From assembly GCA_034428955.1 (NCBI GenBank), contig DAOUGZ010000024.1:5804-69803 (forward strand): a DNA stretch of 64,000 nt, written 5' to 3'. Source of the stretch: Anaerolineae bacterium (GTDB taxonomy: Bacteria > Chloroflexota > Anaerolineae > SpSt-313). The notes under the pieces are model-generated. The model saw only the letters and a program-made list of their open reading frames with translations, had not been told where the DNA came from and did not search any database. Below are positions 2,053 through 56,468 of this stretch, piece after piece (position 1 is the stretch's first letter; each line of letters opens with the position of its first letter). The position numbers and the translations under genes were made by a program.

Positions 2053-2103
2053 CAGAGATTCTGATGGGTGCGACTCGCCCCGTGCGGCGCCATGTTACTC
2101 ATA
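2053..2103 (+). repeat. Dispersed ~50-nt intergenic element, copy 1 (agagattctgatgggtgcgactcgccccgtgcggcgccatgttactcata); second copy at 56416-56468.
   Basis: ~85% identity between the two copies. Both begin 10-12 nt after a TAG stop on the + strand. Confidence 0.7.
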
Positions 2104-2168
2104 GGGTCTTGGCGTTTCCTCATGGTACGGATTTTGCTCAGAGAAGGCACATTGTCAGGAGATGGGCC

Positions 2169-2666
2169 ATGAAACTGAGCGCACTTTTGATCGCGCTGTT
2201 GGCCGTCACTGTGGCTGTGGTTCCATTTGTCTTCAACTGCCGAGTTGAGGGCAGGATGATGACGCTGGCCGACGGCGGCCGGATGCCGCCCAGGTGCTAC
2301 TGGACGGCCCAGGCCGAGCTGACGCTGGCTGTGCCGTTGCTGGCGCTGGCCGGGATGCTGGCCTTCAGCCGGCGCAAGGAGGCCCGCCGAGCACTGCTGG
2401 TGCTGGGGGCCATACTGGGCGTCTTGGTCATTCTGCTGCCGGCGCGGCTTATCGGCGTGTGCGCAGATTCGGGCGCATCCTGCAAGCTGATCATGGAACC
2501 GGCGATAATCCTGGCCGGCAGCCTGTTGGCCGGTATCAGCTTGGCCAGCCTGCTGCTTTCCGAGCGCCGGTCCGAGTACGGCGATGAGCCGGTGCGCAGG
2601 CGCCCGCTACACGCAGCGGCCCGGCAGCGTGCCGGCGCTTCTATCGAGACTGGAGATGCGCATTAG
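2169..2666 (+). CDS. Small 4-TM, 4-Cys membrane protein (DUF4418-like); tandem paralog 2.
   Basis: ORF 2064..2666. ATG at 2169 after AGGAGA. Shares TM topology and Cys motifs with 1527..2042. Confidence 0.6.
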   Translation: MKLSALLIALLAVTVAVVPFVFNCRVEGRMMTLADGGRMPPRCYWTAQAELTLAVPLLALAGMLAFSRRKEARRALLVLGAILGVLVILLPARLIGVCADSGASCKLIMEPAIILAGSLLAGISLASLLLSERRSEYGDEPVRRRPLHAAARQRAGASIETGDAH

Positions 2667-2680
2667 AGAGGAGCGGCGGC

Positions 2681-3883
2681 ATGTGCCTCCTCCGCCTGGT
2701 GCGGTATAGCCCTGTGGGCAAGGGACTTGGGGGATGGGCAGCCTTTCTCTCGGCTGCCGTGGTGGCGGCGCTTTCGCTATTGACGGCGCTGATCCTGCAC
2801 GGCGCCGGCGCCTCGCTGGACCTGACTCTCACTCGGCTGGGAGCAGACATCGTCGTCGTCGGCCGGGGGGCCGAAGGTCACCTGGAGAGTTCCCTGGTCT
2901 TGGGTGCGCCGCTGCGGGTGTGGCTGCCGCAGGCGCACCTAGAGCGCATCGCGGCCATTCCTGAGGTGGCTGCCGTCTCGCCCCAGCTCTACCTTTCTGC
3001 GCTCCCTGAGCCCTCCGGCCGTGTCGCCCGGGAGGTCTTCCTCGTCGCCTGCGACCCGGCGACCGATCTATCGCTGCGGCCCTGGCTCGCAGAGGACCTT
3101 GTGGGCCGGCTGCGGCCGAAAGAGGCCGTCGGCGGCAGCAACGTCTCGGTACCCGCGGGCAAGGAGGGCATCAGGTTGTATGGTTCCCTGATTGCCCTAC
3201 GCGCCAACCTGCCGCCGACGGGTACCAACCTGGACCACACCCTCTTCTTCAGCTTTCAGACGGCCTACGATATCGCCGCCAACTCGTACCGGCTGGCCGA
3301 GCAGCCGCTGGTGATCCCGCCGAACAGCATCTCGGCGGCGCTGGTAAAGGTGCGTCCGGAGGCTGACCCGCACCAAGTCGCGTTGGAGATCCGCCGCAGC
3401 GTCCCCGGGGTCACACCCATCGAGCGTGCAGACCTCTTGCCGACGTTCCGAGGGCGAATCGCGGACCTGCGGCGGCGCATGAGGGCTACCTCTTACCCCA
3501 CGCTCGCACTCTTGCCGCCTCTTTTGGGCCTGATCCTGACGTTGACGGCCCAGGAACGGTGGCCCAAGGTCGCCGGCCTGCGCGCACTGGGTGCGACCGG
3601 CCATGATGTACTACGCTGTTTGCTGGCCGAGGCGGCGCTATTGGCCCTGCAGGGCGCGATGCTGGGCACGGCTCTGGCCGTGTTGGCGACGCGCCTTCTC
3701 CGCGAGCGCATCGCCGCCGCGCTCAAGATACCGCTCCTCTTCCCCCCTCTGCCCTCATTGCTGGCGTCGGTGGCCGGGGGCGCGGCTTTGGCATTGGCAG
3801 CGGTCGTGGCGGCTGCCTTGCTCCCGGCTTGGCGGCTCAGCCGGCAGGCGACGAGGCCGGCGACCCAGGGTAGGCCGCAATGA
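2681..3883 (+). CDS. FtsX-like ABC-transporter permease (MacB/LolC-type single FtsX domain). No cognate ATPase gene adjacent.
   Basis: N-terminal TM, large extracytoplasmic domain (..LGADIVVVGRG..), C-terminal 3-TM FtsX domain. RBS GAGGAG before ATG 2681. Confidence 0.7.
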   Translation: MCLLRLVRYSPVGKGLGGWAAFLSAAVVAALSLLTALILHGAGASLDLTLTRLGADIVVVGRGAEGHLESSLVLGAPLRVWLPQAHLERIAAIPEVAAVSPQLYLSALPEPSGRVAREVFLVACDPATDLSLRPWLAEDLVGRLRPKEAVGGSNVSVPAGKEGIRLYGSLIALRANLPPTGTNLDHTLFFSFQTAYDIAANSYRLAEQPLVIPPNSISAALVKVRPEADPHQVALEIRRSVPGVTPIERADLLPTFRGRIADLRRRMRATSYPTLALLPPLLGLILTLTAQERWPKVAGLRALGATGHDVLRCLLAEAALLALQGAMLGTALAVLATRLLRERIAAALKIPLLFPPLPSLLASVAGGAALALAAVVAAALLPAWRLSRQATRPATQGRPQ

Positions 3884-3973
3884 GGTTCCGCCTGTCGAGC
3901 TTGATGTACTTTGCCCAGTGGGCCGAGACCCAATCAGACCGGACATGACGGGCAAGCCGGCCCGCCGCTCTGT

Positions 3974-5044
3974 TCACGGAGTCTCTCCACCGCCCAAAGA
4001 CCTCACGCGGCGCAGAAAGAAAAAGCCGATGGCCAGCGGCAGCCATACGTTCAGCCCGCGGAAGGCGACGGTTATGGCCACCGCACTCGTCGTGGTGACG
4101 CCGAGCGAGGCGAGCACCAGCGCCATAGCGCCTTCGGCCACGCCGATGCCATGGGGGATGATCGTCACGATCGAAAAGACGATATTCAGCATATAGCCGG
4201 CGATCAGAGTTCCCGGGCGCAGCGGCCAGCCATAGGCCAGGGAGAGGGCATAGAGGCTGGCCAGGTTGACGAGGCATGCCGCCATGGCTACGCCCAGGGT
4301 GCTTCCCAGAAGGCGTGGCGCCTCGCTCAGACCCTTGGCTGCCCTGACGTAATCATCCGCCTGCTGCTCCGCCCAGGTCTCCGCCAGCGGCACCGGGCGG
4401 CCGAGTTGCCCCGCCAGCCCATTGACGATGTGCTGCAGGGCGCGGAAGAGGGCGTGAAGCCGGCCGGGCAACCAGCGCCCCAGCAAGATCATCCCGGCCA
4501 GAGAGCCGGTGAAGAGGAGCAGGATGGTGGAGGCGACGATCTGATAGGGCTCCAGGGCTTGCCGGTAGGCGAGGTGATGCAGGCCATAGGCTACCAGCGG
4601 CAGGATGGCCGTCAGGTCGGCGACCAGGACGAGCAAGGCACCCTGAGCGGCGCGCACGGCCGACTGGCCGCGGCGGGCCGCATCGTCGACAACGACTGCC
4701 AGCGCGCTGACGCCCCCAGACGGTACGATGGCTTTCAGGAACAGGGAAGCAAAGAGCACCGGCACAAGGTCGCGCACACGGCTTTCAACGCCGACGCTGG
4801 CCAAGCCGAGCCGATATTCGGCAGCGTACACCAGGTAGAAGGCGCCCTGTAGCAGCGCGGCCGCCAGTATCCATGGCCAACGGCCGCGCCCCAGCGTGCT
4901 GAGGACTCGCACTACCTCTTGTTGGCGCACAGCAACGAGGGCTGCAAAGCCCGTGAGGATTAGGACCAGCAGCCAACGGCGGCGTAGATGGGTGAGCAGG
5001 CGGTGGTGGTGCATCGATGGATCGGATGGGTCTTGGATCGACAC
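3974..5044 (-). CDS. UPF0104/LPG-synthase-TM (flippase-like) family integral membrane protein.
   Basis: ~8 predicted TM helices. Family-typical length and hydrophobic pattern. Divergent from rph. Confidence 0.65.
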   Translation of the reverse strand: MSIQDPSDPSMHHHRLLTHLRRRWLLVLILTGFAALVAVRQQEVVRVLSTLGRGRWPWILAAALLQGAFYLVYAAEYRLGLASVGVESRVRDLVPVLFASLFLKAIVPSGGVSALAVVVDDAARRGQSAVRAAQGALLVLVADLTAILPLVAYGLHHLAYRQALEPYQIVASTILLLFTGSLAGMILLGRWLPGRLHALFRALQHIVNGLAGQLGRPVPLAETWAEQQADDYVRAAKGLSEAPRLLGSTLGVAMAACLVNLASLYALSLAYGWPLRPGTLIAGYMLNIVFSIVTIIPHGIGVAEGAMALVLASLGVTTTSAVAITVAFRGLNVWLPLAIGFFFLRRVRSLGGGETP

Positions 5045-5303
5045 GGAATCTCGTGGCTCCTCACAGTGGCTTGGGGTACCTGATGGCCGGTAGGGTTGGC
5101 GGCATGATGCAGGCTGCTGCGATCCAGGCGGCCGGCCGCTTGCCCGCTTGCTTACTGTTTAACCCCCAATATACCCCCGCGATGTGTAGCAAACTATGGG
5201 CCTGCGTGGCATGCGATTCGCTGAGTCGCTCGCGACGCATGAACAGGAAGCGCCTGCATGCCGCCCCCAGCCGGATGCGGAATGCGGCCGAGGAAGGAAT
5301 GGG

Positions 5304-6026
5304 ATGAGCCGGGCGAGAAGCGACGGACGTGCCCACGATGAGATGCGCCCCGTGGAGATGGTTCTTGACTATCAAGCTTTTGCTGAGGGATCGGCGCTGG
5401 TCAGCGTGGGTGGAACGCGTGTGCTGTGCGCGGTGACGGTCCAGGATGGCATCCCCCCCTGGGTTGTCGGTGCCCCGGGGCAGGGCTGGATTTCGGCCGA
5501 GTACGCCATGCTGCCCCGTTCGACCCGCACCCGGACTTCCCGCGACGGGTCGGCGCGTGAAACCGAGATCTCGCAACTGATCGGGCGTGCGCTGCGCGCC
5601 TCCGTCAATCTACACGCGCTTGGCGAGCGCACGTTTATCGTGGATTGCGATGTGATCCAGGCCGACGGAGGCACTCGCTCAGCGGCCATCACCGGGGGGT
5701 ATGTGGCCCTGGTGCAGGCCGTGCGGCGCCTGATGCGCGAGGGCCGCATACAAGACTCGGTGTGGCGCCCGCCCGTGGCCGGAGTCAGCGTTGCTCTGTG
5801 GCGCGGCGAGGTGGTCCTCGACCCCTGCCATGAGGAGGATATCGAGGCCAATGTGGATTGCGACGTGGCGCTGAACGCCGAGGGGCGGCTCGTAGAGCTG
5901 CATGCGCCCGCTTCCGACCCCTATACGCAGGAGCAACTGGAGGCGATGCTGGCGATGGCCAGGCCCGCAACGCAGCAGTTGATCGAGATGGAGATGCGGC
6001 TGCTGGGCTGGGAGAGGTGGGGTTAG
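5304..6026 (+). CDS. rph: Ribonuclease PH.
   Basis: ATG 5304 after GAGGAAGGA. 240 aa. Signature CDVIQADGGTRSAAITGG and overall RNase PH similarity. Confidence 0.9.
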   Translation: MSRARSDGRAHDEMRPVEMVLDYQAFAEGSALVSVGGTRVLCAVTVQDGIPPWVVGAPGQGWISAEYAMLPRSTRTRTSRDGSARETEISQLIGRALRASVNLHALGERTFIVDCDVIQADGGTRSAAITGGYVALVQAVRRLMREGRIQDSVWRPPVAGVSVALWRGEVVLDPCHEEDIEANVDCDVALNAEGRLVELHAPASDPYTQEQLEAMLAMARPATQQLIEMEMRLLGWERWG

Positions 6027-6472
6027 GGCTCGGCGATCAGCTCCTGCGGCGCCCAGGCCATGGCCTGGGTGTGTAGCCAGGCCAGTTGCCGGTCTGTCTC
6101 CGCCCCCAGGTTGGCACAGACCGATTCCAGTGTCGAGTCGCACAGGACCCGCGCCGCCTGGCCGAGCACGACCCAGCGCAGGTGCACGCTCTGGGCCAGG
6201 AGCCACGCATTCTGTAGGTCTTCCAGCAGGGGGTGCGTCTCTGCGGCAGGGGCCAGCACGGGCAGGCAACTGGCGAGCGCCGCCTCGGCGTTTAGCGGGC
6301 GCCCCGTGAGCTTGCTCAGAACGCGAATGTGCTCTTCGGACCAGGCAGCGAGCCGGGTACCGGTAAAGCCGATATCGAGTTCATCGCTGTGGCGCTCACC
6401 CAGGGCGATCAGCGCGTCTGCCAGTTGCCTCTCGGCAATCAGGAGGAGATCCACATATTCCCATACGCGCAT
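6023..6472 (-). CDS. Hypothetical 149-aa protein encoded immediately downstream of (and overlapping) the molybdoenzyme gene; possible dedicated chaperone/accessory protein.
   Basis: Strong RBS GGGGAGGA 5 nt before ATG 6472. 77-nt overlap with the 3' end of the upstream gene in another frame. Codon usage matches the genome. Confidence 0.45.
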   Translation of the reverse strand: MRVWEYVDLLLIAERQLADALIALGERHSDELDIGFTGTRLAAWSEEHIRVLSKLTGRPLNAEAALASCLPVLAPAAETHPLLEDLQNAWLLAQSVHLRWVVLGQAARVLCDSTLESVCANLGAETDRQLAWLHTQAMAWAPQELIAEP

Positions 6473-8885
6473 ACCTGTCCTCCCCGGCGGTTGGCGCCTT
6501 TCCGATGCGCAGGCGGAAGCGCCTCAGCAGCGAGCGCAATCGCTCACCCAGCGAGGGCTGGGGGATGCCGCAAATGCGCACGGCGGTGTACTTGAGCAGC
6601 GGCTGTTTGCTGACCGGATCCCACTGGCCCAAGGTGAGTTCGTTGGCGGCGCGGATGCGCGAGGGTCCATCCCAGTAGCCGTAGTGAAAGGGCATAAAGA
6701 CCACTCCGGGTGCGATCCTGCCGATTTCCGCCCGTGCCAGGGCCAGCCCCCGGCGCGAACGGACCTCGACCATCTGGCCCGCGACGATGCCCTGGCGGCG
6801 GGCGTCCTCCTCTGAAATCTGCACAAAAGAGTCCGGCGCGGCGTCGTTCAGCACAGGGACGCGCCCCGTCTTGGTGCGCGTCAGCCACTGGTAGACGACC
6901 CGTCCTGTCGTCAGCCAGAGGGGATACTCCTCGTCGGGTGCCTCCGGCAGGGGCGCGCCATCGATGGGCTTGAGCAGCGCTCTGCCCTGCGGGTCTTCTG
7001 CGCTGTAGGCAGAGCGGCCGATCTCGGCGCCGGTCAGCAGATCGTGCCCATAGGTCTGACAATAGTCGGCGCTGGTGTTGAACCGCCCCCCCTCGTACAG
7101 CCGTGGCCGGCCCTCGGGATACTGCTCGTTGCAGGGCCACCGGATGCCCGGGCCGCCGCTGAGCCGGGCATAGCTGAGCCCGCTATAGTCGCAGGGGCGC
7201 CCCCTGGTGCAGGCCTTCCAGGCCTCAAAGGCTCCCTCGGGGTCACTCCATTTGATCAACGGCGCGCCGTCACGGTCGCGCAGGTCCATGAGCCGGGCAT
7301 AGTCGAGAAAGATGTCCAGGTCCGGCCTCGCTTCGCCGGGCGGGCTGGCCGCCGTGTAGGAGATGTGCACCGTCCGGTCGGCAGCGGTGAACGTGCCCGT
7401 CTTTTCGCCCCAGATGGCCGCCGGCAGCACGACATCGGCCAACTGCGCCGTCTCCGTCATGAACGCATCCTGGACGACGAGGAATAGCCCGGCGGAGCGC
7501 AGCGCATTGCGCACGCGCAGCAGGTCCGGCAGCGATACCGCCGGGTTGCTGCCGGTGACCCAGAGCATGCGTATCGAGCCCTCTTCGATGTAGCGCAGTA
7601 TGCGCATGATGTGCGTTGGCGGCCCCCAGCAGGGGATGCGCGAGGGCTCGACGTTCCAGAGGCGCGCCAGTTCGGCCATGTGCTCAGGATTGGCCCAGTT
7701 GCGAAAGGCCGGAAAGGTGCCCGCGCAGCCGGTCTCGTGGACGTTGTGGCTGGCGGGCTGCCCGCTCATGTGCAGGATGCCGCATCCCGGCCGCCCGATC
7801 AGGCCGCGCATGAGGTGCAGGTTGTTGATCTGGACTGCCGTCGCCGTGGCCTGCGCGGACTGGTACACGCCCAACAGTACCGTGGAGACGAGGCTGGGCG
7901 TCGTTCCGAGGATCTGGGCCGCTCCACGTATGTCGTCGACCGGCACGCCCGTTACCGCCTCCACGCGCGCGGGTGACCACTCTCTGACCGATTTCTTTAG
8001 GCGCGCATACCCCAGGGTGTGGGCATCGATATAGGCGCGGTCGACCCAGCCGGATTGGATAATGATGTTGATGAGTCCGCAAAGCAGGGCGGCGTCGGTC
8101 CCCGGGCGCGGGGCCAGGTGGACGTCGGCGGCCTGCGCCGTAGGGGTTTTGCGCGGGTCGATGACGACCAGCCGGGGTGGCCGGGGGCCGGCGCGACGGT
8201 CCAGGATGCGCATCCAGAGCACAGTGTGTTGCTCGGCGACGTTGTGCCCGACGTGCAGGATGGCCTCTGCTGTGTCCAGGTCGCTGAATGAGCCGGGCTG
8301 GCCGTCTGTGCCGAACGACTCCATCAAGGCGGCCGAAGCGCTGGCGGTCGATAGCCGGGTGCTGGCGTCCATGTGCGGGGTACCCAGGCCGGCCTTGCCG
8401 ATAACGGCCAGGGTATAGTACTCTTCCAGAAAGAGCTGGCCACCGGTGTAAAAGGCGATGGCTAGGCTGGTATGATCGGCGCGAATCTGCGCCGAATGCT
8501 CGGCCACCAGGCCCAGCGCCTCCTCCCAACTGACCTCGCTCAGCCGCCCGTTCCGGCGGACTAGAGGGTGGGTGAGCCGGTCGCTACTGGCGTTGGCCAG
8601 CCAGCCGTAGAGCCCTTTGGGGCCGAGCCGGCCGCGATTGGTGCCGTCTGCGCTGCGCCCGCGCACGCCGACCATGCGCCCATCTCGCACGCCAATGTCC
8701 AGCCCGCAACCGTTGGAGCAGAGAACACAGGCCGATTGTACCCAGAACTCGGCCTCAGCCAGTACTCGCTCATCCAAGCGTGTTGGCCAGTCGCCCTCGC
8801 CATAGTAGGGCGTGCGGTACCCCCATATGGACGCAATAGCATCGCGCGACTGGTACTCCTCTGTCTCTCGCCTGCCGAGCATCAT
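6396..8885 (-). CDS. Molybdopterin (Mo-bisPGD) oxidoreductase, nitrate-reductase/formate-dehydrogenase superfamily, cytoplasmic (no Tat signal).
   Basis: 829 aa. N-terminal C-x2-C-x3-C Fe-S motif (SACVLCSNGCG) followed by GRLGPKG where canonical enzymes have GRLC.KG. MopB-type domains and a C-terminal molybdopterin-binding region. Confidence 0.85.
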   Translation of the reverse strand: MMLGRRETEEYQSRDAIASIWGYRTPYYGEGDWPTRLDERVLAEAEFWVQSACVLCSNGCGLDIGVRDGRMVGVRGRSADGTNRGRLGPKGLYGWLANASSDRLTHPLVRRNGRLSEVSWEEALGLVAEHSAQIRADHTSLAIAFYTGGQLFLEEYYTLAVIGKAGLGTPHMDASTRLSTASASAALMESFGTDGQPGSFSDLDTAEAILHVGHNVAEQHTVLWMRILDRRAGPRPPRLVVIDPRKTPTAQAADVHLAPRPGTDAALLCGLINIIIQSGWVDRAYIDAHTLGYARLKKSVREWSPARVEAVTGVPVDDIRGAAQILGTTPSLVSTVLLGVYQSAQATATAVQINNLHLMRGLIGRPGCGILHMSGQPASHNVHETGCAGTFPAFRNWANPEHMAELARLWNVEPSRIPCWGPPTHIMRILRYIEEGSIRMLWVTGSNPAVSLPDLLRVRNALRSAGLFLVVQDAFMTETAQLADVVLPAAIWGEKTGTFTAADRTVHISYTAASPPGEARPDLDIFLDYARLMDLRDRDGAPLIKWSDPEGAFEAWKACTRGRPCDYSGLSYARLSGGPGIRWPCNEQYPEGRPRLYEGGRFNTSADYCQTYGHDLLTGAEIGRSAYSAEDPQGRALLKPIDGAPLPEAPDEEYPLWLTTGRVVYQWLTRTKTGRVPVLNDAAPDSFVQISEEDARRQGIVAGQMVEVRSRRGLALARAEIGRIAPGVVFMPFHYGYWDGPSRIRAANELTLGQWDPVSKQPLLKYTAVRICGIPQPSLGERLRSLLRRFRLRIGKAPTAGEDRYARMGICGSPPDCREATGRRADRPG

Positions 8886-9129
8886 CCCACCTCAGTAGAA
8901 CAGGAGCAAGGTGTGTGCCAGGCTTGTCTGTTACTTCGCTGGCATACACCTTGCTACCGTGGTCGGGAGCCTGGGCGGCCCACCGTGGCCTCGCCAGAGG
9001 GGGTGGCGACCGAAGTGGCCGATCGCATAGATGCTGGTTGCCTGCGTTCCGGTTCCCGCCGGGTAACGCGGGCCATGAGAATCTCTGCGGGCCACTATGA
9101 GGGCCGATCACTCCGTACCGCATATAGGT

Positions 9130-14940: not shown

Positions 14941-15011
14941 AGAAACCGGCGTCGCTAGACACTATAATGAATTATAGCGCATTGATGGCTGCTGGCAACG
15001 GAGGCAGTTAA

Positions 15012-15109
15012 TGCTCAACCTTGCGCAAGCTCCAAGGCGTGCCAGCTCGAGGGCAGCTTGCTCAGCCAAGATGTGCTCCGTCAGGACTCGTCTTGGAGCT
15101 CTCGCAAGG
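15012..15109 (+). promoter_or_regulatory. Conserved upstream element, copy A (~98 nt; core CCTTGCGCAAGCTCCAAGG at 15019-15037 with the 10-bp palindrome CTTGCGCAAG).
   Basis: Sequence similarity to copies at 30362-30380, 35731-35749 and 44838-44856 (minus). ~75% identity over ~90 nt with the copy upstream of the DNA methyltransferase. Confidence 0.6.
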
Positions 15110-15134
15110 ATTAAAGGAGTTAGAGGAACCACTC

Positions 15135-26461: not shown

Positions 26462-26513
26462 ATGAAGCGGTCCAGCTATTCTTGGAGGGGATCAAGACGT
26501 GAAGGAAACCGGC

Positions 26514-29100
26514 ATGATACGCTATATCCTTTCTCTCTCTGACCCAGACGCCACCCTGGAAAACGTCGGCGGCAAGGGCATGTCGCTGGCCCGGATGCTG
26601 CATGCGGGGCTACCCGTGCCAGACGGCTTTCACGTCACGACACAGGCCTACCGCCGCTTCGTTGCCGAGAACGGGATTCAGGTTCGGATACGGCAGGAAC
26701 TCGAGGGAGCGGACCCGGCCGATCCGGCCACGCTCGAGGCGGCTTCCGAGCGCATCCGCGCTGCTTTCGCTGCAGGCACCACCCCACCCGAGATCGTCGC
26801 GGCTGTTGCAGCGGCCTATGAGGCGTTGCAGAACACTCCGGTTGCCGTGCGCTCATCGGCCACCGCCGAGGACCTGCCCGGTGCTTCTTTTGCCGGCCAG
26901 CAAGAGACCTATCTCAACATTCGCGGCAGCGATGCTGTTCTAGACGCCGTGAAAAAGTGCTGGGCGTCGCTGTGGACGGCGCGAGCCATCGCCTATCGCC
27001 TCAAGAACAACATCGAGCAAGACAGCGTCGCCCTGGCGGTGGTGGTTCAGGAATTGGTTTTGGCCGATGCCGCCGGGATCATGTTCACGGCCAACCCGTT
27101 GAACGGCAAGCGCGATGAACTGGCCATCAACGCCGCCTGGGGCCTGGGCGAGGCGATCGTCTCGGGCGCGGTGACTCCGGATACGATCACCATCAGCAAA
27201 GCCACGGGGCGGGTGCTTGCCCAGGAGACGGCAGAAAAGGCGCTGATGACCGTGCGTACGGAGCAGGGCACCCGCGAGGTCCCCGTGCCTGCATCGCAGC
27301 GGAAAAAGGCCGTGCTCAGCAAGGCGCAGACGGCCGAGCTGGCGCGCCTGGGGGTAGCCATCGAGCGGCTGTACGAGATGCCCATGGATGTCGAATGGGC
27401 GCTGGCGGGCGGCCGGTTCCATATCGTGCAGGCCCGCCCTATTACCGCGCTGCCCGAGCCCCCCCGTGGAGTGGAATCGCCCCGACCCAACTGCCGTCTA
27501 TGCGCGCGGCAGCCTGGCGGAACACATTCCATCCCCTGTCACCCCGCTGTTTGCGACCCTGGGGCTGGAAATTGCCAACCGGGCCACTCAACGGATGTGG
27601 GATCGACTGATAGGCAAGGGCGCCCGGAGCCTGGTAGCGGGTGACGGGTTCTATGTGCCCATCAACGGCTATGTGTTCGGCGGAATCCACATGCGCGGTA
27701 GGCACCTGTTGGCGGTCATCAGCATGTCTATCCGGCAGGTCCCCCTCATATTCCGTGGCAGCGTGGCGCGCTGGCAGGCCGCTCGCCGGGTATTCGCCTC
27801 TGTGGTCGAGGAATGGGAACGGAAACCGATCGAGTCCCTATCGGCTACCGAGTTACTGGCAGGCGTGCGCACCGTCTTTGGTGCCGCCTGCCGCTACTTT
27901 ACCGAGATCCAGACGACCCTGCCCGCCGCATCGAGCAGCGAGGTGCTCTTCGCCCGGCTGTACGACAGGCTGATCCGCCGCAAGCAGGACCCCCCAGCCG
28001 CAACCTTCCTGCTCGGCTCTGATACGGCCGCCTTGCGGGCCGAAAAGTCTCTGTTCGACATCGCCGAGTGGATGAGAGGCAATCCGCCTCTGGCCGGCTA
28101 TGCCCTGCAAACCCCAACCGAGAAGCTGGAGACCGATCTGGGGCAGGAGGCGCCTCCGGAGGGGCTCTCTGCCGACCTGTGGGCCGAGTGGCGACGGCGC
28201 TTCCGTCGCCACCTGGACGAGTTCGGCCGCACAGCGTACGAGTTCGATTTCGCCCAGCCCACGCCGCAGGAAACGCCCGGCCCCATGCTGGACGCCATCA
28301 AGGGCTTTCTCGCCGGCAAGGCCGGCAGCCCCTACTGTCGCCAGCGTGAAGCCATCGCAAAGCGGGAGCAGGCCACGCAGGCCGTGCTCGAGCGGGTCGG
28401 CTGGCCGCGCAAGGGCTGGTTCCTCAAGCTGCTGCGCTGGGCGCAGGATACGGCGCCGATGCGTGAAGACAGCATCTTTGACATGGGCATGGGCCACCCG
28501 CTGATTCGCCGCATGCTGGCCGAGCTCGGGCGCCGCATGGTTGCCGGCGGAGCCATCGCTCAGGCCGGGGACATCTACTGGCTCGAAAAGGCGGAAGTGG
28601 AAGAACTGGCCACCGCCCTCGCCAACGGCAACCCGCTGCCCGACCTGACTGGGCGCGTCCCGCCGCGCAAGGAGCAGTGGCAGTCCGCGCTCAAGATCAG
28701 CCCGCCGGTCATGCTGCCGGAGAAATCGGGCTGGTCCAAGCTGGTGCACGGCGCGGAGGCCGAGAAGAAGAACGGCAAGGTCGTGTTGAAAGGCGTGGGT
28801 ACCAGCGGCGGCCGCGTCACGGCTCCGGCCTGCGTGGTGTTCGGCCCGGAGGATTTCGGCCGGCTCAAGCCCGGCGATGTGCTGGTGGCCGTCACCACCA
28901 CGCCGGCCTGGACCCCGCTGTTCGCGCTGGCCTCGGCGGTGGTCACCGATATCGGCGGGCCGCTCAGCCATAGCAGCATCGTCGCCCGCGAGTACGCCAT
29001 CCCGGCGGTGATGGCCGCCCGGGGTGCGACCCGTTCCCTCCGCAGTGGGCAGGTGGTCACGGTAGATGGGAACGCAGGGACGGTGACCCTGGAGGATTAG
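26514..29100 (+). pseudogene. PEP-utilising enzyme (rifampicin phosphotransferase / PEP synthase-like; ATP-grasp N-terminus plus C-terminal phospho-His mobile domain). Split into two frames by a +1 frameshift in a C7 tract at 27459-27465.
   Basis: ORFs 26499..27644 and 27388..29100. Removing one C restores ..PITALPEPPVEWNRPDP... N-terminus MIRYILSL..VGGKGMSLA; C-terminus ..GGPLSHSSIVAREYAIPAV... Confidence 0.7.
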
Positions 29101-29202: not shown

Positions 29203-30231
29203 ATGATGAGATGCCTCGCCATCGTCGTCACCTTCGCCTTGCTGGCGACCATGTCCGTCCTGGCCCACACTGCCGTCTCGTCCCCGACCTATGGGCCGGC
29301 GCTCATCGCCCTGAGCGCCCTGGCCTCGACCCTTTTGGGCGGGTGGCTGGCCCGCCGGGTGGAGGCCCTGGAAGCCTCGCTCCACGTCGAGAGGAAGCAA
29401 AGAGCCGAGTTCGAACGCCACAGCCGCGCGATGTATGCCGAGCTAGAGTCCAAACTGGAGCAACGCACAGCCGAACTGGTGCGCGAGCGCGATATCACCG
29501 TGCGCACGGAAAAGCTGAACTCGCTCAGCCGGCTCGTCGGCGGTGTGGCCCACGAACTCAACAACCCGCTGACGGCCATTCTGGGCGAAGCGACAATCCT
29601 CCGCAAGGCCGCCCCACCCGAGGTGCGGCGCGGCCTGCGGGTGATCGAGCAACAGGCTGCCCGCTGCGCCAGCTTGATCCGCGACCTGGGGGCGTTTGCC
29701 GGCCTCGAGCAGGGCAAGGCCCAGCTTCTCGACGTCCATGCGCTTTTGGAGGGAGCTCTGTCGCAGGTGATCATGGTCGCCCCGAGTCAGGATGTAAAGG
29801 TGGTCCGGCAGTATTGGCAGGCCCCATTGGTGACCACTGGGAACATGGAACAACTGCAGGAAGCCCTGGTCAATGTCATCCACAACGCCTATCAGGCCAT
29901 GTCCGGCAGAGAGACCGGGCAGTTGACGCTGCGCACCCGGCCGCAGGAGGGTGGGGGCATCTGTGTAGAGGTAGTGGACACGGGCGTGGGCATCGAGCCG
30001 TCGATCCTGCCCTACATCTTTGACCCCTTCTACAGCCGGCCACGGACGCGGGCGAGCGCACAGGTCGGGCTGGGCCTCAGCATCGCGCACGGGCTGATCC
30101 GAGCGCACGGCGGGCGCATCAGTGCCGAGAGCCAGATGGGTCACGGCACCACGGTGTTTATTGCCCTGCCGCAGGGTGAGCTAGAGATAGCGAGCCACCA
30201 CGAGCACACGGCCGGCACGGAGGTGGCCTGA
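29203..30231 (+). CDS. Sensor histidine kinase (2 TM, HisKA, HATPase_c).
   Basis: H-box VAHELNNPL; N/G boxes. Confidence 0.8.
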   Translation: MMRCLAIVVTFALLATMSVLAHTAVSSPTYGPALIALSALASTLLGGWLARRVEALEASLHVERKQRAEFERHSRAMYAELESKLEQRTAELVRERDITVRTEKLNSLSRLVGGVAHELNNPLTAILGEATILRKAAPPEVRRGLRVIEQQAARCASLIRDLGAFAGLEQGKAQLLDVHALLEGALSQVIMVAPSQDVKVVRQYWQAPLVTTGNMEQLQEALVNVIHNAYQAMSGRETGQLTLRTRPQEGGGICVEVVDTGVGIEPSILPYIFDPFYSRPRTRASAQVGLGLSIAHGLIRAHGGRISAESQMGHGTTVFIALPQGELEIASHHEHTAGTEVA

Positions 30232-30244
30232 GAGCCAGGGTCCG

Positions 30245-30292
30245 GTGTTCAGAGCGCCACGGTGAGTCCTCACCGTGGCGCTCTGAACACCG
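30245..30292 (+). repeat. Perfect 23-bp inverted repeat with 3-nt loop (ggtgttcagagcgccacggtgag tcc tcaccgtggcgctctgaacacc).
   Basis: Begins 14 nt after the stop at 30231; no T-run follows. Confidence 0.8.
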
Positions 30293-30361
30293 CTGCAGGT
30301 CTTGCCCTTCCGTTTTGACTCCTCCACTTCCCCATACTACAATGACCTTGGTTGTTCTGCA

Positions 30362-30380
30362 CCTTGCACAAGCTGCAAGG
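30362..30380 (+). promoter_or_regulatory. Conserved motif, copy D: CCTTGCACAAGCTGCAAGG (perfect 7-N5-7 dyad), 80 nt upstream of the dehydrogenase start.
   Basis: 18/19 identity to the copy A core. Confidence 0.55.
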
Positions 30381-30459
30381 CTGCTGAGCGCCGCGCTCGG
30401 CGGCGTGGGAGCCGCCCCGGCTTACCCGCCAGGATTCCAGCAGCCTATCGGAGGAAACT

Positions 30460-35709: not shown

Positions 35710-35730
35710 TATCGACTCCAGGTTGCTCGA

Positions 35731-35749
35731 CCTTGCGCAAGCTCCGAGA
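35731..35749 (+). promoter_or_regulatory. Conserved motif, copy C (CCTTGCGCAAGCTCCGAGA; palindrome CTTGCGCAAG at 35732-35741), 23-32 nt upstream of the divergently read permease start.
   Basis: Flank gctcgacc matches the gctcaacc / gctcagcc flanks of the other copies. Confidence 0.55.
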
Positions 35750-35848
35750 CTCGCCGGCCTACACGGAAAGCGGTTTCACCGCCAAGGCTGCCAAGTGACG
35801 CAAAGGAAACCTGCATAGAGTTGCGCACCCGTCGGGTGGCCGCCTATA

Positions 35849-44744: not shown

Positions 44745-44856
44745 CCTTCGTTATCAAATCCGAAACTTTGCGAAAGCCTCAGGTCGACTCCCAACCCGAC
44801 ACGGCGTGGCTGAGCAAGTTGCCCCCGGGCCGGCGAGTCTTGGAGCTTTTGCAAGG
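44745..44856 (-). promoter_or_regulatory. Conserved upstream element, copy B (core CCTTGCAAAAGCTCCAAGA at 44838-44856 on the minus strand; ~75% identical to copy A over ~90 nt).
   Basis: Fills the intergenic space between the SPFH-gene stop and the methyltransferase ATG. Confidence 0.6.
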
Positions 44857-44867
44857 CTGAGCGCGTG

Positions 44868-46358: not shown

Positions 46359-46368
46359 GGAGTAACCC

Positions 46369-47401: not shown

Positions 47402-47509
47402 GATATGTGCCCGTTCACTCAGCAACGATAGCGCTGATTACCGGCTTGAGGCTCCGGCCTTTCGCCGCTATAATTCGCCGCAGATCACAGGAATGGAGGA
47501 TGCCCCGTA

Positions 47510-48733: not shown

Positions 48734-48840
48734 CCGCCTCAGGGGGCGCATAAACTGCAAACGGCCAAAGCCGTCACTACGTGGGAGGGAGTTGCCTCAG
48801 TCCATGTAGTGACCGCTTCAGCGGTTCCCGCCCCAGGGGT

Positions 48841-49218
48841 CTACCTGGTGGGTGGAGCATCTCCCTCTTCCGCTGAGAGGAGCCGGCCGACGACCTCTTC
48901 GAGGGTATCCAGGTCAAAGGGCTTGGGCAAGAGTAGCGTGCCGGGGCAGTCACCCGCAGACAGCCTGCCGGCCGTCATGAGGATGACAGGAATTGATGCC
49001 GTATCGGGGGAGGCGTGGAGCTGCTGGCAGAGTTCCAGGCCGTTCATGATCGGCATCATGATATCGGTCAGCACCAGATCCGGGTGCTCGCGGCGGGTTA
49101 CATCCAGGGCCGCGCGGCCGTCATAGGCACGAAGCACGCGATAGCCGATGTCTTCCAGCAAAGAGCCGACAAACTCGACCACCGCTTCCTCGTCATCGAC
49201 CACGAGAACAGTCTTCAC
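48841..49218 (-). CDS. Single-domain response regulator (CheY-like receiver).
   Basis: VLVVDDE.. D-box; ..LVLTDIMMP..; conserved Lys (LPKP). Confidence 0.8.
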   Translation of the reverse strand: MKTVLVVDDEEAVVEFVGSLLEDIGYRVLRAYDGRAALDVTRREHPDLVLTDIMMPIMNGLELCQQLHASPDTASIPVILMTAGRLSAGDCPGTLLLPKPFDLDTLEEVVGRLLSAEEGDAPPTR

Positions 49219-49590
49219 GACGGCTCCTTACACAGGCCTCAGGCGAGCCCAGGTGCGCCACCACGCTTCAGGAGTGCCGGGGTCACACAGGTCCGAGCAG
49301 ATCCTCCGGCGCCGCAAGCGGCGCGTCTTGACTGTCCGCATCTCTGTGCAGCACGGCTGGGCATGGCCCGTCGGCCCGACCGTGCTCGGACGCCACAGCC
49401 CGGCCTGCACCGGCAATGCACTGCATCTGGCCAATCCTAGCAAATCCTAGGCCAGCGCGACGAGGCCGATCAACACCAGTTCCGTCTGTCCACATCGGAG
49501 TCGCTCAATAGCGCGCAACTCCCTCATTCGAGGCGCCGTCGCACGTCTGAGTCGGCCGGTGATGCATGGTGTGGCTCTTGTAAAGCCAAG

Positions 49591-49623
49591 AAGGCGGGGG
49601 AAGGAAAACTCCCCCCGCCTTCC
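49591..49623 (-). terminator. Intrinsic terminator-like hairpin downstream of dnaK (ggcggggg..ccccccgcc).
   Basis: aaggcgggggaaggaaaactccccccgccttcc, 15 nt after the dnaK stop. Confidence 0.65.
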
Positions 49624-49637
49624 TCAGGCAGATGTCA

Positions 49638-51545
<1,908 letters not shown>

Positions 51546-51688
51546 GGGTTGAGCCTCCTAGATAATGAAACGTCAAACGTCATGCGTCAAACGTGATATA
51601 CGCTGCGTACTGCGTGATGCGTGCTGCGTAAGGTAGCCTGCAGCGGCAAACGCCGCAACGAGAGAGGTTACGCAGTACATAGTACGCA

Positions 51689-52300
51689 TCACGTATCAGC
51701 CCCGGCTTGCTCTTCTTCAGTTCCTCCGGTTGCCTCGTCCGTTACGGTGGGCGTCACAGCGACCTTGACCATCGCCGGCCGCAGGATGCGCCCGTGATAC
51801 TCGTAGCCACACTGCAGGTCGGCGACGACCTGCCCATCGGGGTAGGCGGTCGTCTCCTCGCGCAGCACCGCGTGGTGCCGTTCGGGGTCGAACATCTGGC
51901 CGGTCGCCTCAAAGCGCTTGAGCCCCGCTTGCTCGAGGGTTTGCTCGAACTTGCGTCGGATGAGCAGGATGCCCTCAACCCAGCTCAACTGGCTGAGGTC
52001 GGCCGGCAGGGTGGCCATCGCCCGGTCCAGATCGTCGAGGACGGGCAGCAACTGAGTCAGTAGCAGGCTGTTGGCGAAACGGGTAGACTCCTCGCGCTCG
52101 CGCTCGGTGCGCTTGCGATAGTTGGAGAACTCGGCCGCCGTACGGCGCCATTGATCCAGATACTCTTCTGCCTGACCCTTGGCCTTTTCCAACTCCGCTG
52201 CCAGGTCCTCCTGGGCCGGCTGCACGGACTCGGCCTCCGGCGCTCCATCCGGGGTCGTGGGCTGTGCGGACTCTGTGCCCCTCTCGTTCTCATCAACCAT
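51689..52300 (-). CDS. grpE: Nucleotide-exchange factor GrpE.
   Basis: GrpE C-terminal domain signature; position between hrcA and dnaK. Confidence 0.9.
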   Translation of the reverse strand: MVDENERGTESAQPTTPDGAPEAESVQPAQEDLAAELEKAKGQAEEYLDQWRRTAAEFSNYRKRTEREREESTRFANSLLLTQLLPVLDDLDRAMATLPADLSQLSWVEGILLIRRKFEQTLEQAGLKRFEATGQMFDPERHHAVLREETTAYPDGQVVADLQCGYEYHGRILRPAMVKVAVTPTVTDEATGGTEEEQAGADT

Positions 52301-52340
52301 GATTGGCGTTCCACCTCCATCACAGCGAGCTGCAATCTCA

Positions 52341-53375
52341 TCAATACCCGTGCATCTGCTCGACCAGGTTGCTCAGCAGGCGCGCCACAAAACGCACTGC
52401 CGAGATGGCCCGGCCGTAGGGCATGCGCGTGGGGCCAAGAACCCCCACCACGCCGTTAGCCTCACCCCGCACCCCATAGGGTGACAAGACAAGGCTATAG
52501 TCTTCCATATCTCCCCAGCGCCCCTCTCCGCCGATGATGACCTGCACGCCGTTCGCCCACAGAACGTCGGCGATGATAGCCTCCAGCAGGCTGCGCCGTT
52601 CCAGCAGCTCCACCACTTGGCGGAACTTGTCCACCTCGGCAAACTCGGGCTGGCGCAACACCTGCAGCAGCCCGTCGCGGTGGATATCACTCTCCATCCG
52701 CCGGTCCATCTGCTGCATCTGGCTGACGATACATTCCAGGACGTGCCGCTCCAGCCCCGAAAGGTTGGCGTGGGCCAGGGGGCCGGTGCGAATCTCGCTG
52801 GTGTTGGCCGTGCCCAGGAGCGCGTTCAGGCGGTTCGTCGCCTGAGTCAGCTCCTCTTCGCTCGTCGCCGCCGGCAGCGGCATCACCTGTTGGCGGATGC
52901 TGCCGTCATGGCAGATGAGGATGAGCAAAGCAGTGACCTCGCTGAGCGAGATCAGTTCGACATGCCGGAAACGAGTCTGAGGGGCGCGAGGCGCCGTGAC
53001 TAGAGAGGCGCTGCTCGCCGCCTGCGCCAGCACAGCCGCCGCCAACTTCATCCACTGCCCCAGGTCCAACTGAACCTGGTGGAACTGGTGGCTGATCATG
53101 CGCTGCTCACTGGGGGGCAACTCGGTATCCCGCATCAGCCGGTGCACAAAGTAGCGATACCCCTTGTCGGTCGGCATGCGGCCGGCCGAGGCATGGGTCT
53201 GCATGAGGTATCCCTCGCGCTCCAGGAAGGCAAACTCGGAGCGCACCGTGGCCGGGCTGACGTCCAGGCCGTAGCGTTGCACAATGGCCTTGGAGCCAAC
53301 CGGCACGGCCAGCGCAATATACTCACGCACGACGATACCGAGGATTTCCTCTTGCCGGCGGGTCAGTTGCTCCAT
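52341..53375 (-). CDS. hrcA: Heat-inducible transcription repressor HrcA.
   Basis: N-terminal winged-helix (..LTRRQEEILGIVVREY..VGSKAI..); length 344 aa; CIRCE operator upstream. Confidence 0.9.
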   Translation of the reverse strand: MEQLTRRQEEILGIVVREYIALAVPVGSKAIVQRYGLDVSPATVRSEFAFLEREGYLMQTHASAGRMPTDKGYRYFVHRLMRDTELPPSEQRMISHQFHQVQLDLGQWMKLAAAVLAQAASSASLVTAPRAPQTRFRHVELISLSEVTALLILICHDGSIRQQVMPLPAATSEEELTQATNRLNALLGTANTSEIRTGPLAHANLSGLERHVLECIVSQMQQMDRRMESDIHRDGLLQVLRQPEFAEVDKFRQVVELLERRSLLEAIIADVLWANGVQVIIGGEGRWGDMEDYSLVLSPYGVRGEANGVVGVLGPTRMPYGRAISAVRFVARLLSNLVEQMHGY

Positions 53376-53458
53376 ATCGGAGTCCCCTCTAGTATCGGAC
53401 AGATTGGGCGCTCAGCCCAGCCCCTGCATAGGGCAGGCTGCCAGATGCAGAAGCAGGC

Positions 53459-53485
53459 TTAGCACTCGCCAGTCGCGAGTGCTAG
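53459..53485. promoter_or_regulatory. CIRCE operator (TTAGCACTC-N9-GAGTGCTAG).
   Basis: Near-perfect match to the CIRCE consensus. Lies immediately downstream of a TTGACA - 16 - TATCAT promoter (minus strand, 53488-53515) driving hrcA-grpE-dnaK. Confidence 0.85.
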
Positions 53486-53487
53486 TA

Positions 53488-53515
53488 TGATAGCACGAAG
53501 AGCGCCAACTGTCAA
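53488..53515 (-). promoter_or_regulatory. hrcA promoter (-35 TTGACA at 53510-53515, -10 TATCAT at 53488-53493, minus strand).
   Basis: Seen directly in the sequence; canonical spacing, abutting CIRCE. Confidence 0.55.
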
Positions 53516-53575
53516 GGGGTATGGCGCAAACATTAGCAGGTATATCGGAGGAAACTTGATAAGAGCATTATCAAG

Positions 53576-54766
53576 TTAGGAAGGCAGCAAGCGCCGAGGC
53601 AGGACCCCATTGCCCTGTACGTCGGCGGCATCGTGAAAGGCCGCGAGTTCACTCAGGGCTGTGGAGAATGCCGACTGGAAGGCCGCATCCTCGTACAGCG
53701 ACTCGTCGGCCAGGTGGATGCCCTGTACGATCAAGCGCCGGCGCGACCAGCTCATCTGCGGCTCAATGCGCCCCACCAGCGTATCGCCATAGAGGATGGC
53801 CAGCGCGTGGGCCGAGAACTGCCGGCGCAGCGCGGCCGCGCGCGATGCAGGCTGGCGCCAATCGTAGGCAAAAAAGTCCCGAGCGCGCTGGCTGTCCCAA
53901 ACGACCGGGTCGAGGGGCGAGAGAAAGAAAACGTGCGGCGCAGACGGCCCAGGCTGCGCGCCAAGCGGCAGCCAATCAGCCGGCAACAGGTAGGTCTCGA
54001 AAGGGTCCTCGACCCGCACCTGGATCACCTTGCCCTCCGCCAAGAGCTCGTCCATCACCCGGTTCTTTTCGCGTTTCATCGCCGCCAGGCCCAGGCGCGC
54101 GCGCGAGCCGATCCCATTCAGGACCTGGCTCCAACTGGTTCGGGTCATCGGCGCCAGGATGCACAGAGCGCGCCAGGCCAGTGTGTGCAGGCGCTCGTGG
54201 AGCGGCAGGGAATGGCGCTGACAATCCGGCAGAACGCGCTCCGCCAGGTCATAGACCTCCTGGCCGATCTCGCGATCATCGACCAGGATAGCTCCGCTGC
54301 TGTGGAGATCGTGGATGGCGCGCCCGATGGCCCGCCGGTCGGTCTTGCCCTGGCCGCGCAGAAAGAACTGTAGGTCGCGCAGAGTAGCCGCGCCCTCGTC
54401 CTCGAGGTAACCCAGCACCAGGTCCCCCAGAGACCCCGGGCGTGATGCAGCCTGGATGCGCTCGGGGTCATAGATCAGCACATAGTCCTCAGCCGGCAGC
54501 ACCCCAGGCAGATGCAGGCAATGCTCGAACAGGCGCCCGCGCTCGTAGAGAGCGGTTTCCAGGCCGCCGATGCGGTAGGCCTGGACGCGGCCAAAGAGGG
54601 CGATATCGTGGCTGGGCGCCAGGGCGTGGGTGCGCAGCTCCAGGGGCAGGAACCCCTGGCGGCTGACCCAGGTGACGGCGCCATCCATCCCTCTCAGGCG
54701 CCGCTCTCCCAAGAGTCCTTGCCGGCGCAGCAACAGGCGCCTCAGCTCTTTGCGCGTGGTGAGCAT
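53576..54766 (-). CDS. Winged-helix DNA-binding protein of the AlkZ/YcaQ-like (HTH_42/DUF1006) family; putative DNA glycosylase.
   Basis: N-terminal MLTTRKELRRLLLRRQGLLG.. typical of the family. ORF extends to 54856; ATG 54766 preferred. Confidence 0.6.
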   Translation of the reverse strand: MLTTRKELRRLLLRRQGLLGERRLRGMDGAVTWVSRQGFLPLELRTHALAPSHDIALFGRVQAYRIGGLETALYERGRLFEHCLHLPGVLPAEDYVLIYDPERIQAASRPGSLGDLVLGYLEDEGAATLRDLQFFLRGQGKTDRRAIGRAIHDLHSSGAILVDDREIGQEVYDLAERVLPDCQRHSLPLHERLHTLAWRALCILAPMTRTSWSQVLNGIGSRARLGLAAMKREKNRVMDELLAEGKVIQVRVEDPFETYLLPADWLPLGAQPGPSAPHVFFLSPLDPVVWDSQRARDFFAYDWRQPASRAAALRRQFSAHALAILYGDTLVGRIEPQMSWSRRRLIVQGIHLADESLYEDAAFQSAFSTALSELAAFHDAADVQGNGVLPRRLLPS

Positions 54767-54982
54767 TCGATCCTCCTTGACGCACTCTGGTGACTGTGCT
54801 ATCTTCACCGCCAATGGGCAACGGTCACCACGACACCCCCGGCTGGCTGAACGCATGGATGGCGCCGGCCCGCGGCGGGCCTCCAGGTCAGGGCTGGGTA
54901 CTGGTCAGCCCCGCATCCCTGGTTGTTCGGTTGGCGGCGGCCAGCAGAATCTATGCAAGCCACTACTACTCAGGAGTATGCT

Positions 54983-56413
54983 ATGGCCCGTTATGAAGAT
55001 GCCGACTGGCGCGACTCGATGCGTATCCGCTACGACTATACGAACATGCTGGCTGATGTAGTGGGCGAGAAGCGTGGCGCCTCTGAGAACGATGTGAACC
55101 AGATGAGCTTTCGCCTCGCAGCCGCCCTCGACGTGCTGCGCATGCGCCGTGGCCCCAAAGACCTCGCCTGGACGGACCTGCCCTACCAGGAGGACATGGT
55201 CCTCGACATCCTCTCCTACGCGCGCGAGGTCGAAGGCGTCTACGACGACATCCTCGTCCTCGGCATCGGCGGATCGGCCCTGGGCGTGACAGCCCTCAAG
55301 ACGGCGCTCCTGCCGTTCTATTCCGATATAATGTCGCCCGAAGAGCGCCGACACCCCCGTTTGACCGTGCTCGATAACGTCGACCCCGACTGGGTCATGG
55401 CCGCCCTGCAGCGGTTGGACCCCGAACGCACGCTCTGCCTCGTCATCAGCAAGTCGGGCAGTACGACGGAGACGATGGCCCAATTCCTCATTGCCCGCAC
55501 TTGGCTCAGAGAGCGCCTGGGCGACGGCGCCGCCTGCCACATCGTGGCCATTACGGATCCGGAAAAGGGTCCCTTGCACGACATCGCCGAGCGTGAGGGC
55601 TATCGCACCTTCCCGATACCCCGGGGGGTCGGCGGGCGCTATTCCGTCCTTTCGCCGGTGGGGCTCGTCCCTGCGGCCCTGGTGGGCATCGACATCCAGG
55701 AACTGCTGGCCGGCGCCGCCTATTGCGACAAGCTCTGCAGCGTGAAGGACCTGTACAAGAACCCGGCCGGCATGAGTGCTGCCCTGCAACGCCTGGCCTA
55801 CGACCGGGGCCAGCGCATCTCGGTCATGATGCCCTACAGTCAGCGCCTGCGAGACATCGCCGACTGGTTCCGGCAGCTCTGGGCCGAAAGTCTGGGCAAG
55901 AAGATGAACACCCTGGGCCGCCGCGTGCACCTGGGGCCGACGCCCGTCCTGGCCCTGGGCACGACCGACCAGCACTCGCAGATTCAGCTCTATGTCGAGG
56001 GCCCGCCGGACAAGGTCATTAACTTTGTCGCTGTTGAGCGCTTTGCCGAGGAAGGCCCAATCCCCGCGACCGGCGAGGAAGATGGCGAGATCGCCTTCCT
56101 GGGCGGGCACACCCTGGCCGAACTGATCAATGTGGAGCGCGAGGCGACCATGGCCGCGCTCACCGAGGCCGGCCGCCCGAATTGCACCCACTTTCTCCCG
56201 GAGGTCAACGCTTTCACCGTCGGCCAGTTCCTGTACATGCTGGAGATGCAAACGGCCATCGCTGCCCTCTTCTTTGCCGTCAATGCCTTCGACCAGCCCG
56301 GCGTAGAGGCGGGCAAGGTGGCAACCTATGCCCTGCTCGGCCGGCCCGGCTATGAGGAGCGGGCAATCGAGATGCGCTCGGCCCAGGCCGCGCGGCCGCG
56401 CCACGTTATCTAG
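54983..56413 (+). CDS. pgi: Glucose-6-phosphate isomerase.
   Basis: ATG 54983 after AGGAG; ISKSGSTTET signature. Confidence 0.9.
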   Translation: MARYEDADWRDSMRIRYDYTNMLADVVGEKRGASENDVNQMSFRLAAALDVLRMRRGPKDLAWTDLPYQEDMVLDILSYAREVEGVYDDILVLGIGGSALGVTALKTALLPFYSDIMSPEERRHPRLTVLDNVDPDWVMAALQRLDPERTLCLVISKSGSTTETMAQFLIARTWLRERLGDGAACHIVAITDPEKGPLHDIAEREGYRTFPIPRGVGGRYSVLSPVGLVPAALVGIDIQELLAGAAYCDKLCSVKDLYKNPAGMSAALQRLAYDRGQRISVMMPYSQRLRDIADWFRQLWAESLGKKMNTLGRRVHLGPTPVLALGTTDQHSQIQLYVEGPPDKVINFVAVERFAEEGPIPATGEEDGEIAFLGGHTLAELINVEREATMAALTEAGRPNCTHFLPEVNAFTVGQFLYMLEMQTAIAALFFAVNAFDQPGVEAGKVATYALLGRPGYEERAIEMRSAQAARPRHVI

Positions 56414-56415
56414 TA

Positions 56416-56468
56416 ATAGAGATTCTGATGGATGCGAACCGCCCCATGCGACGCCATGTTACTCATCA
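56416..56468 (+). repeat. Dispersed ~50-nt intergenic element, copy 2 (tagagattctgatggatgcgaaccgccccatgcgacgccatgttactcatca).
   Basis: ~85% identical to 2053-2103; begins 3 nt after the pgi stop. Confidence 0.7.

Follow-up and report, generated by a model that had tools for sequence, protein, structure and literature searches.

The window analysed here, a 64,000-nt stretch of contig DAOUGZ010000024.1 (assembly GCA_034428955.1, positions 5,804 to 69,803), comes from an uncultured Anaerolineae bacterium, consists of housekeeping DNA and contains a 49-nt direct repeat, whose two long copies lie 54 kb apart in the same orientation. The first of them, L1 (2054–2102, + strand), is found in the 126-nt spacer separating two DUF4418 paralogs (PF14387), namely gene 1 upstream (1575–2042, + strand, start codon TTG at 1575) and gene 2 downstream (2169–2666, + strand), and begins 11 nt past the TAG stop codon of gene 1 (2040–2042). 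The second, L2 (56418–56466, + strand), begins 4 nt past the TAG (56411–56413) of the glucose-6-phosphate isomerase gene (pgi, 54983–56413, + strand) and is followed, about 120 nt further downstream, by the conserved promoter of a TPR operon. In an in-register comparison the copies matched at 44 of 49 positions (90%), and their similarity ended sharply on both sides, the 60 nt flanking each side being unrelated. A search of the window with a 20-mer of the 5’ half, allowing up to three mismatches, returned these two sites only (0.00 expected from 100 shuffles), an nhmmer search with a profile of the two copies found no further copy in the 64 kb, and a general repeat search recovered the pair as family D11. 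The repeat is real. The original prediction had described two + strand copies of about 85% identity at 2053–2103 and 56416–56468, positioned 11 and 3 nt past stop codons and without homology in their flanks; the copies, their strand, the unrelated flanks and the distance of 11 nt were all borne out, while the limits, the identity and the distance of the second copy from its stop codon are corrected to the values given above.

The five differences between L1 and L2 fall at element positions 15, 21, 22, 29 and 34, all within a variable GC-rich core of 20 nt (2068–2087, + strand; 56432–56451 in L2). This core is bordered by a conserved 5’ block of 14 nt without substitutions (AGAGATTCTGATGG, 2054–2067, + strand; 56418–56431 in L2) and by an identical 3’ block of 15 nt (CGCCATGTTACTCAT, 2088–2102, + strand; 56452–56466 in L2). 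The core and the adjoining CGCC, 24 nt together, are missing from a short form of the element described below, and the chance that five of five differences fall within these 24 positions was calculated combinatorially as C(24,5)/C(49,5) = 0.02, or about 0.05 with the adjacent pair taken as one event. L2 carries an A at four of the five differences, most of which are ordinary transitions. A diversity-generating retroelement with template and variable repeats (TR/VR), considered on account of the A residues, was rejected given the lack of a reverse transcriptase gene in the window, the non-coding nature of the copies and the preponderance of ordinary transitions.

Both end blocks recur in the leader of DUF4418 gene 1. 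There, the short form S1 (GATTCCGGCATGGATG-TTGCTCATAGAGGCA, 1518–1548, + strand) carries the blocks GATTCCGGCATGGATG and TTGCTCAT directly abutting one another, with the 24-nt core absent. It is located after a very stable terminator-type hairpin that follows the M23 peptidase gene and delimits the gene 1 leader (1461–1512, + strand; −42.7 kcal/mol, z-score −9.7 for the fold of 1460–1516), and 33 nt upstream of the TTG start at 1575. That part of the element returns before the first paralog had been noted earlier, at 1538–1550; this recurrence exists, but at 1518–1545, and it is larger than supposed, comprising both end blocks without the GC-rich core. A degenerate short form, S2 (2113–2149, + strand), is present downstream of L1 and 27 nt upstream of the start of gene 2. 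The S1 core (GGATGTTGCTCATAGA-GGCA) and the S2 core (GGATTTTGCTCAGAGAAGGCA, 2129–2149) agree at 18 of 20 positions when a single gap is allowed, despite an identity of 51% between the two DUF4418 proteins and of about 60–70% between their coding DNAs, which fits constraint on the leader core; judged from these sequences, the DUF4418 leaders appear to carry a conserved non-coding core. L1 in turn looks like a long variant of this leader core situated just upstream of S2. The 15-mer ATGTTRCTCATAGRG occurs exactly at 1531–1545 and 2092–2106, and local alignment against the pre-specified 64-nt leader of gene 1 gave p values of 0.002–0.02 for L1 and 0.02–0.06 for L2. Moreover, the similarity between L1 and the leader reaches 4 nt beyond the boundary of the L1/L2 similarity (ATGTTGCTCATAGAG versus ATGTTACTCATAGGG), which, together with the p value of 0.002–0.02, suggests that L1 is native to this locus. 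L2 shares the core of the long form and the 5’ extension, without the leader-like 3’ flank. The pattern GATTCYG-N0-2-ATGGRTG-N0-30-TTRCTCAT, devised after the sequences were seen, matches exactly three sites in the window (1518–1541, 2057–2102 and 56421–56466).

The original prediction had laid stress on the position of the element immediately after stop codons, an emphasis that does not hold up: it rests on two instances, TAG is the commonest stop codon of the window (22 of 45 genes), and the short form S1, upstream of a gene, comes after a terminator hairpin and not after a stop. The stop context TAGTA was likewise rejected as a part of the element, TAG being the commonest stop and a third gene, unrelated to the other two, also having TAG followed by TA. 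What appears to matter is the kinship of the element with the DUF4418 leaders, not its closeness to stop codons.

Two observations were made in the surroundings of DUF4418 genes. In a distant relative (L020, GCA_036705545.1, 1668–6292) a lone DUF4418 gene lies directly 3’ of genes for a multicopper oxidase and a cupredoxin, a neighbourhood that hints at a copper-related role of DUF4418. At the beginning of the window (1–138), upstream of the M23/LysM peptidase gene, a 46-nt unit is present in three tandem copies (100%, 96% and 63%); upstream of about window position 27 the sequence of the Logan contig L016 (1180–1423) diverges, and the first of these units is missing from it, which suggests either copy-number variation or an assembly difference.

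An ATG lies within the 5’ block of both long copies (2064 and 56428), and a small protein start or N-terminal extension with the peptide M(G/D)A(T/N)RP(V/M)RRHVTH could in principle be encoded here. In line with such a reading, each of the ATGs at 1527 and 2064 shares the frame of the DUF4418 gene that follows it, and the short form misses exactly 24 nt, that is, eight codons. However, the GC content at third codon positions was 0.44–0.54 in the ATG-initiated frame compared with 0.79–0.80 in the adjacent genes, and in each of the three open frames one synonymous change was counted against three non-synonymous codon changes, so that only one in four changed codons is synonymous. Each annotated start (1575 and 2169) has a strong Shine-Dalgarno sequence in front of it and is also where independent gene calls begin. 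In the closest DUF4418 homologue an in-frame stop lies just before the MKLS start, and the open frame in L2 ends after 21 codons. The concatenated six-frame translations of both copies found no match among 5.8 billion predicted proteins at E ≤ 10, the peptide thus being present in none of them. Taken together, we consider a coding function of the element very unlikely.

A second set of analyses concerned RNA structure. The minimum free energies of the 49-mers ranged from −7.5 to −12.1 kcal/mol, with z-scores of +0.3 to +0.9 relative to shuffled sequences on both strands; with flanks included the z-scores were −0.55 and −0.12, and for the whole spacers +0.29 and −0.94. Genuine hairpins following genes in this genome are far stronger, with z-scores of −9.7 (1460–1516) and −7.6 (30236–30300). 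No terminator-like site was predicted in 1300–2800 or 56000–57000, and the element is without a T-run; the scan and the folding agree with the earlier statement that the element lacks a canonical terminator hairpin or T-run. That it is too short for an insertion sequence was also correctly stated. A small RNA derived from a 3’ untranslated region had been among the candidates of the original prediction, to be checked against Rfam and by covariation, and neither check favoured it: there was no Rfam match at the gathering threshold in the whole window, matches at E ≤ 10 in the two 401-nt regions searched all lay outside the element and were noise, and the consensus fold of the two sequences reached −7.5 kcal/mol with many G-U pairs and without any compensatory pair. 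The spacers do look transcribed, the element runs in the same sense as the genes on either side, and all five variable positions are unpaired in the RNAalifold consensus, as could be expected of a small regulatory RNA, or an RNA element of a 3’ untranslated region, that works by structure or base-pairing. Against this stand the z-scores of the element alone, with flanks and in unstructured whole spacers, the weakness of the G-U-rich consensus fold beside the real hairpins of this genome, and the lack of an Rfam match at E ≤ 10 and of a promoter or terminator consensus, and we regard an RNA-based function as improbable. The lack of both a fold and a coding signal indicates that the element is non-coding and unstructured.

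Promoter motifs were looked for as well. No sigma-70 promoter-like site on the + strand overlaps either copy; the sole + strand match is the sigma-70-type promoter TAGCCA-17-TATAAT of the TPR operon (56589–56617, + strand), which is conserved in relatives and separate from L2. SigmaE-type (TCTGAT), sigma-54 and extracytoplasmic function (ECF) promoters were rejected upon direct reading, since no −35 or −24 element is properly spaced in both copies.

The conservation of the gene order around pgi permitted a comparison of the L2 site with relatives, the nearest of which have pgi genes that are 75–84% identical. The element is missing 3’ of the pgi stop codon in four relative lineages, represented by L013–L015 (80% pgi identity), L017 and L018 (78%), L019 (78%) and L023 (84%, with 18 nt visible past the stop), and nhmmer detected no copy in any of the relative loci fetched. 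In relatives the order HrcA-AlkZ-pgi / TPR-BNR-GAF kinase is unbroken across the position of L2. Direct repeats of this length, in the same orientation and 54 kb apart, could be taken for the attL and attR sites of an integrated island or prophage; this conserved synteny rules out such a 54-kb island for all practical purposes, and the interval holds housekeeping genes, with no integrase and no tRNA gene. Among the proteins of the window there was no transposase, integrase, reverse transcriptase or HUH/RAYT protein, and no tRNA gene was found in the window. In L017, L018 and L019, an open reading frame (ORF) of 151–158 aa with an N-terminal transmembrane segment and no Pfam match lies between pgi and the TPR gene (L017 11437–11913, L019 3149–3604). 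This ORF is missing from L013 and from the window (56414–56660), so that the spacer holding L2 has been remodelled. When the pgi spacer was aligned with that of L013, the promoter block alone aligned, and no precise insertion site can therefore be defined. The promoter block itself (TTCCGTCAGTAGCCAGGGATTCGGATTTCCTGTATAATGG) is strongly conserved upstream of the TPR operon at window positions 56576–56620, L013 5573–5619, L019 3840–3880 and L017 11960–12000, and is present in L013 although the next gene there codes for a GAF-PAS kinase.

Searches beyond these loci gave no further copies. The pattern ATTCTGATGGN{16,26}GCCATGTTAC yielded only chance matches with unrelated cores in sets that do not include the source genome (five in the GTDB species representatives, six in the JGI metagenomes and none in IMG/VR), a core-anchored pattern had no match in IMG/VR, and blastn against plasmids and phages produced insignificant matches of 20–30 nt only. 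As far as these sequence comparisons go, the element appears to be lineage-specific.

We compared the element with known families of short intergenic repeats. Families of repetitive extragenic palindromes (REP/BIME) exceed 100 copies per genome and go with a cognate RAYT gene. Like them, the element is short (20–50 nt), intergenic, lineage-specific and positioned just 3’ of genes, as they often are, but it contains neither a palindrome nor a stable hairpin, and two full copies were seen in 64 kb, where none of the encoded proteins has a HUH/Y1 transposase domain. REPs are palindromic, bear a GTAG or CGTC tag and are mobilised by the RAYT transposase (PMC3733652, PMC2817692). Here GTAG is found at 2042–2045, in the flank of copy 1 only, the corresponding sequence of copy 2 being GTAA, and CGTC is found in neither. 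The REP-like nature proposed earlier is contradicted by the missing palindrome, the z-scores of +0.3 to +0.9, the absence of a shared GTAG or CGTC tag and the lack of a HUH/RAYT gene in the window. Miniature inverted-repeat transposable elements (MITEs; PMC3184786) resemble the element in that it is non-coding, sharply bounded and missing at orthologous sites of relatives. In contrast to typical MITEs, it is only 49 nt long, has no terminal inverted repeats (on inspection the ends AGAGATTCTGATGG and ATGAGTAACATGG agree at about 7 of 13 positions) and shows no target-site duplication, the flanks being GCACCGC/AGGGTCT for copy 1 and CTAGTAAT/CAAGACT for copy 2. Lacking the palindrome, tag and inverted repeats that define REPs and MITEs, the element is not a member of either. 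With integron attC sites it shares the location directly 3’ of a stop codon and a length of about 50–60 nt; however, its 3’ end GTTACTC departs from the R’ consensus GTTRRRY at two R positions, no R’’ sequence RYYYAAC is present at the 5’ end, there is no imperfect palindrome, an integron integrase is lacking, and the genes on either side are housekeeping genes in conserved order. A dif/Xer site (GGTGCG ... ATGTTA) was rejected upon direct reading, the spacing being wrong and inverted arms missing. The resemblance to a duplicated promoter, operator or leader segment extends to the sense orientation upstream of genes, the related core before both DUF4418 paralogs, the variable spacer between conserved end blocks and the lack of RNA structure; the differences are the missing sigma-70 consensus and the location of L2 upstream of an unrelated operon with its own conserved promoter. 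The most fitting label for the element is that of a short intergenic repeat, or a duplicated leader segment, specific to the species.

Several other features of the window came to light. A second dispersed family of about 100–110 nt is represented at 15012–15120 (+), 30355–30450 (+), 35724–35830 (+) and 44755–44862 (−), with the consensus GCTCAACCTTGCGCAAGCTCCAAGGC...CTTGGAGCTCTCGCAAGG and no Rfam match at the gathering threshold. The copy at 15008–15125 folds into a long hairpin (−50.1 kcal/mol, z-score −3.1), the other copies being weaker or limited to the 5’ half, and the family could be a MITE-like or structured-leader element. A perfect palindrome of 24+24 nt with a 2-nt spacer (30243–30292; −49.3 kcal/mol as RNA, z-score −7.6), 12 nt past a histidine kinase gene ending at 30231, probably serves as a terminator or represents a hairpin repeat. 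Finally, a PPDK_N domain (26466–27644) and a PEP-utilisers mobile domain (27358–29100), usually part of one polypeptide, are encoded in two overlapping open frames, which could reflect a frameshift, a sequencing error or a split gene.

On this evidence we tentatively favour an origin of the element in the DUF4418 leader: it would be a DNA module specific to the lineage, and L2 would be a secondary copy of it at an ectopic site, within a remodelled spacer. The module would be a non-coding, unstructured sequence acting at the DNA level and related to the leader of the two tandem DUF4418 paralogs, and it would be neither an autonomous nor a hairpin-based mobile element; L2 may stem from a rare duplication, non-homologous or templated, that placed it in a spacer rearranged in this lineage. 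A putative function, if any, would most likely be that of a protein-binding or promoter-proximal cis-element recognised via the end blocks, and the identity of these blocks makes them likely candidates for the target of a DNA-binding protein, should the element be functional. Of the candidates named in the original prediction, the protein-binding site is thus the one that we favour. Three points are our inference: that L1 was the source of L2, the way in which it was copied, and any role in regulation. Several points weigh against this view. The similarity between the long and short forms is moderately significant, scoring with cheap gaps leaves S1 outside the best whole-window matches, and the two-block pattern that unites the three sites is a post hoc one. 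The leader core was not found in more distant DUF4418 loci, the likeness of S1 and S2 could stem from local gene conversion instead of selection, the element contains no promoter consensus, and no regulator was identified. Furthermore, the presence of two copies, separated by 54 kb, in a single arbitrarily chosen 64-kb window fits a genome-wide family better than a single nearby ectopic event, and contigs of two independent Logan assemblies end at the 5’ edge of L1, which hints at graph breaks caused by a repeat or by polymorphism.

The last two points bear on the main rival explanation, which is possible though on the whole doubtful, namely that the copies belong to a dispersed family, lineage-specific and multi-copy, with other members outside the window. 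Such a family would be non-palindromic, with conserved termini that are used by a transposase or recombinase, or it would be spread by recombination, and the short forms in the DUF4418 leaders would be old, decayed copies. The sharp boundaries, the identical termini around a varying core and the absence of the element at orthologous sites of relatives agree with this explanation, and two copies per random 64 kb would imply about 100 per genome if these were evenly spread. The Logan contig L012 starts at window position 2052 and L016, from another sample, ends at 2065; the two come from independent SRA runs and are identical to the window in the stretches compared. Their breaks could be due to a repeat-induced break in the graph, to strain polymorphism or to low coverage, but the 14-nt overlap of their ends does not fit a simple repeat break at k = 31. 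A dispersed family is also at odds with the absence of a third long copy from the 64 kb and from the extra 1.3 kb of L016, with the lack of terminal inverted repeats, a target-site duplication or a hairpin, and with the lack of a mobile-element gene nearby. In addition, the peptide query of the 5.8 billion predicted proteins found nothing, which is weak evidence that no copies have been swallowed by gene calls. Unlikely, in our estimate, is the more specific proposal of an undescribed, non-palindromic short interspersed element, present in many copies, with conserved asymmetric termini of 14–15 nt around a variable core, which would move by a single-strand or recombinase mechanism, prefer the first bases past stop codons and have left the short forms as internally deleted relics.

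Short lineage-specific intergenic repeats are common in bacterial genomes, and the element is in this respect fairly ordinary and matters little at present. If it were to occur in many copies genome-wide, it would be of more interest, since a multi-copy element that is non-palindromic and without inverted repeats would have to be mobilised in a manner different from REPs and MITEs. If the end blocks are the binding site of a regulator, the DUF4418/FtsX membrane-protein operon would be linked with the TPR/BNR/GAF-kinase operon, which would be modestly useful.

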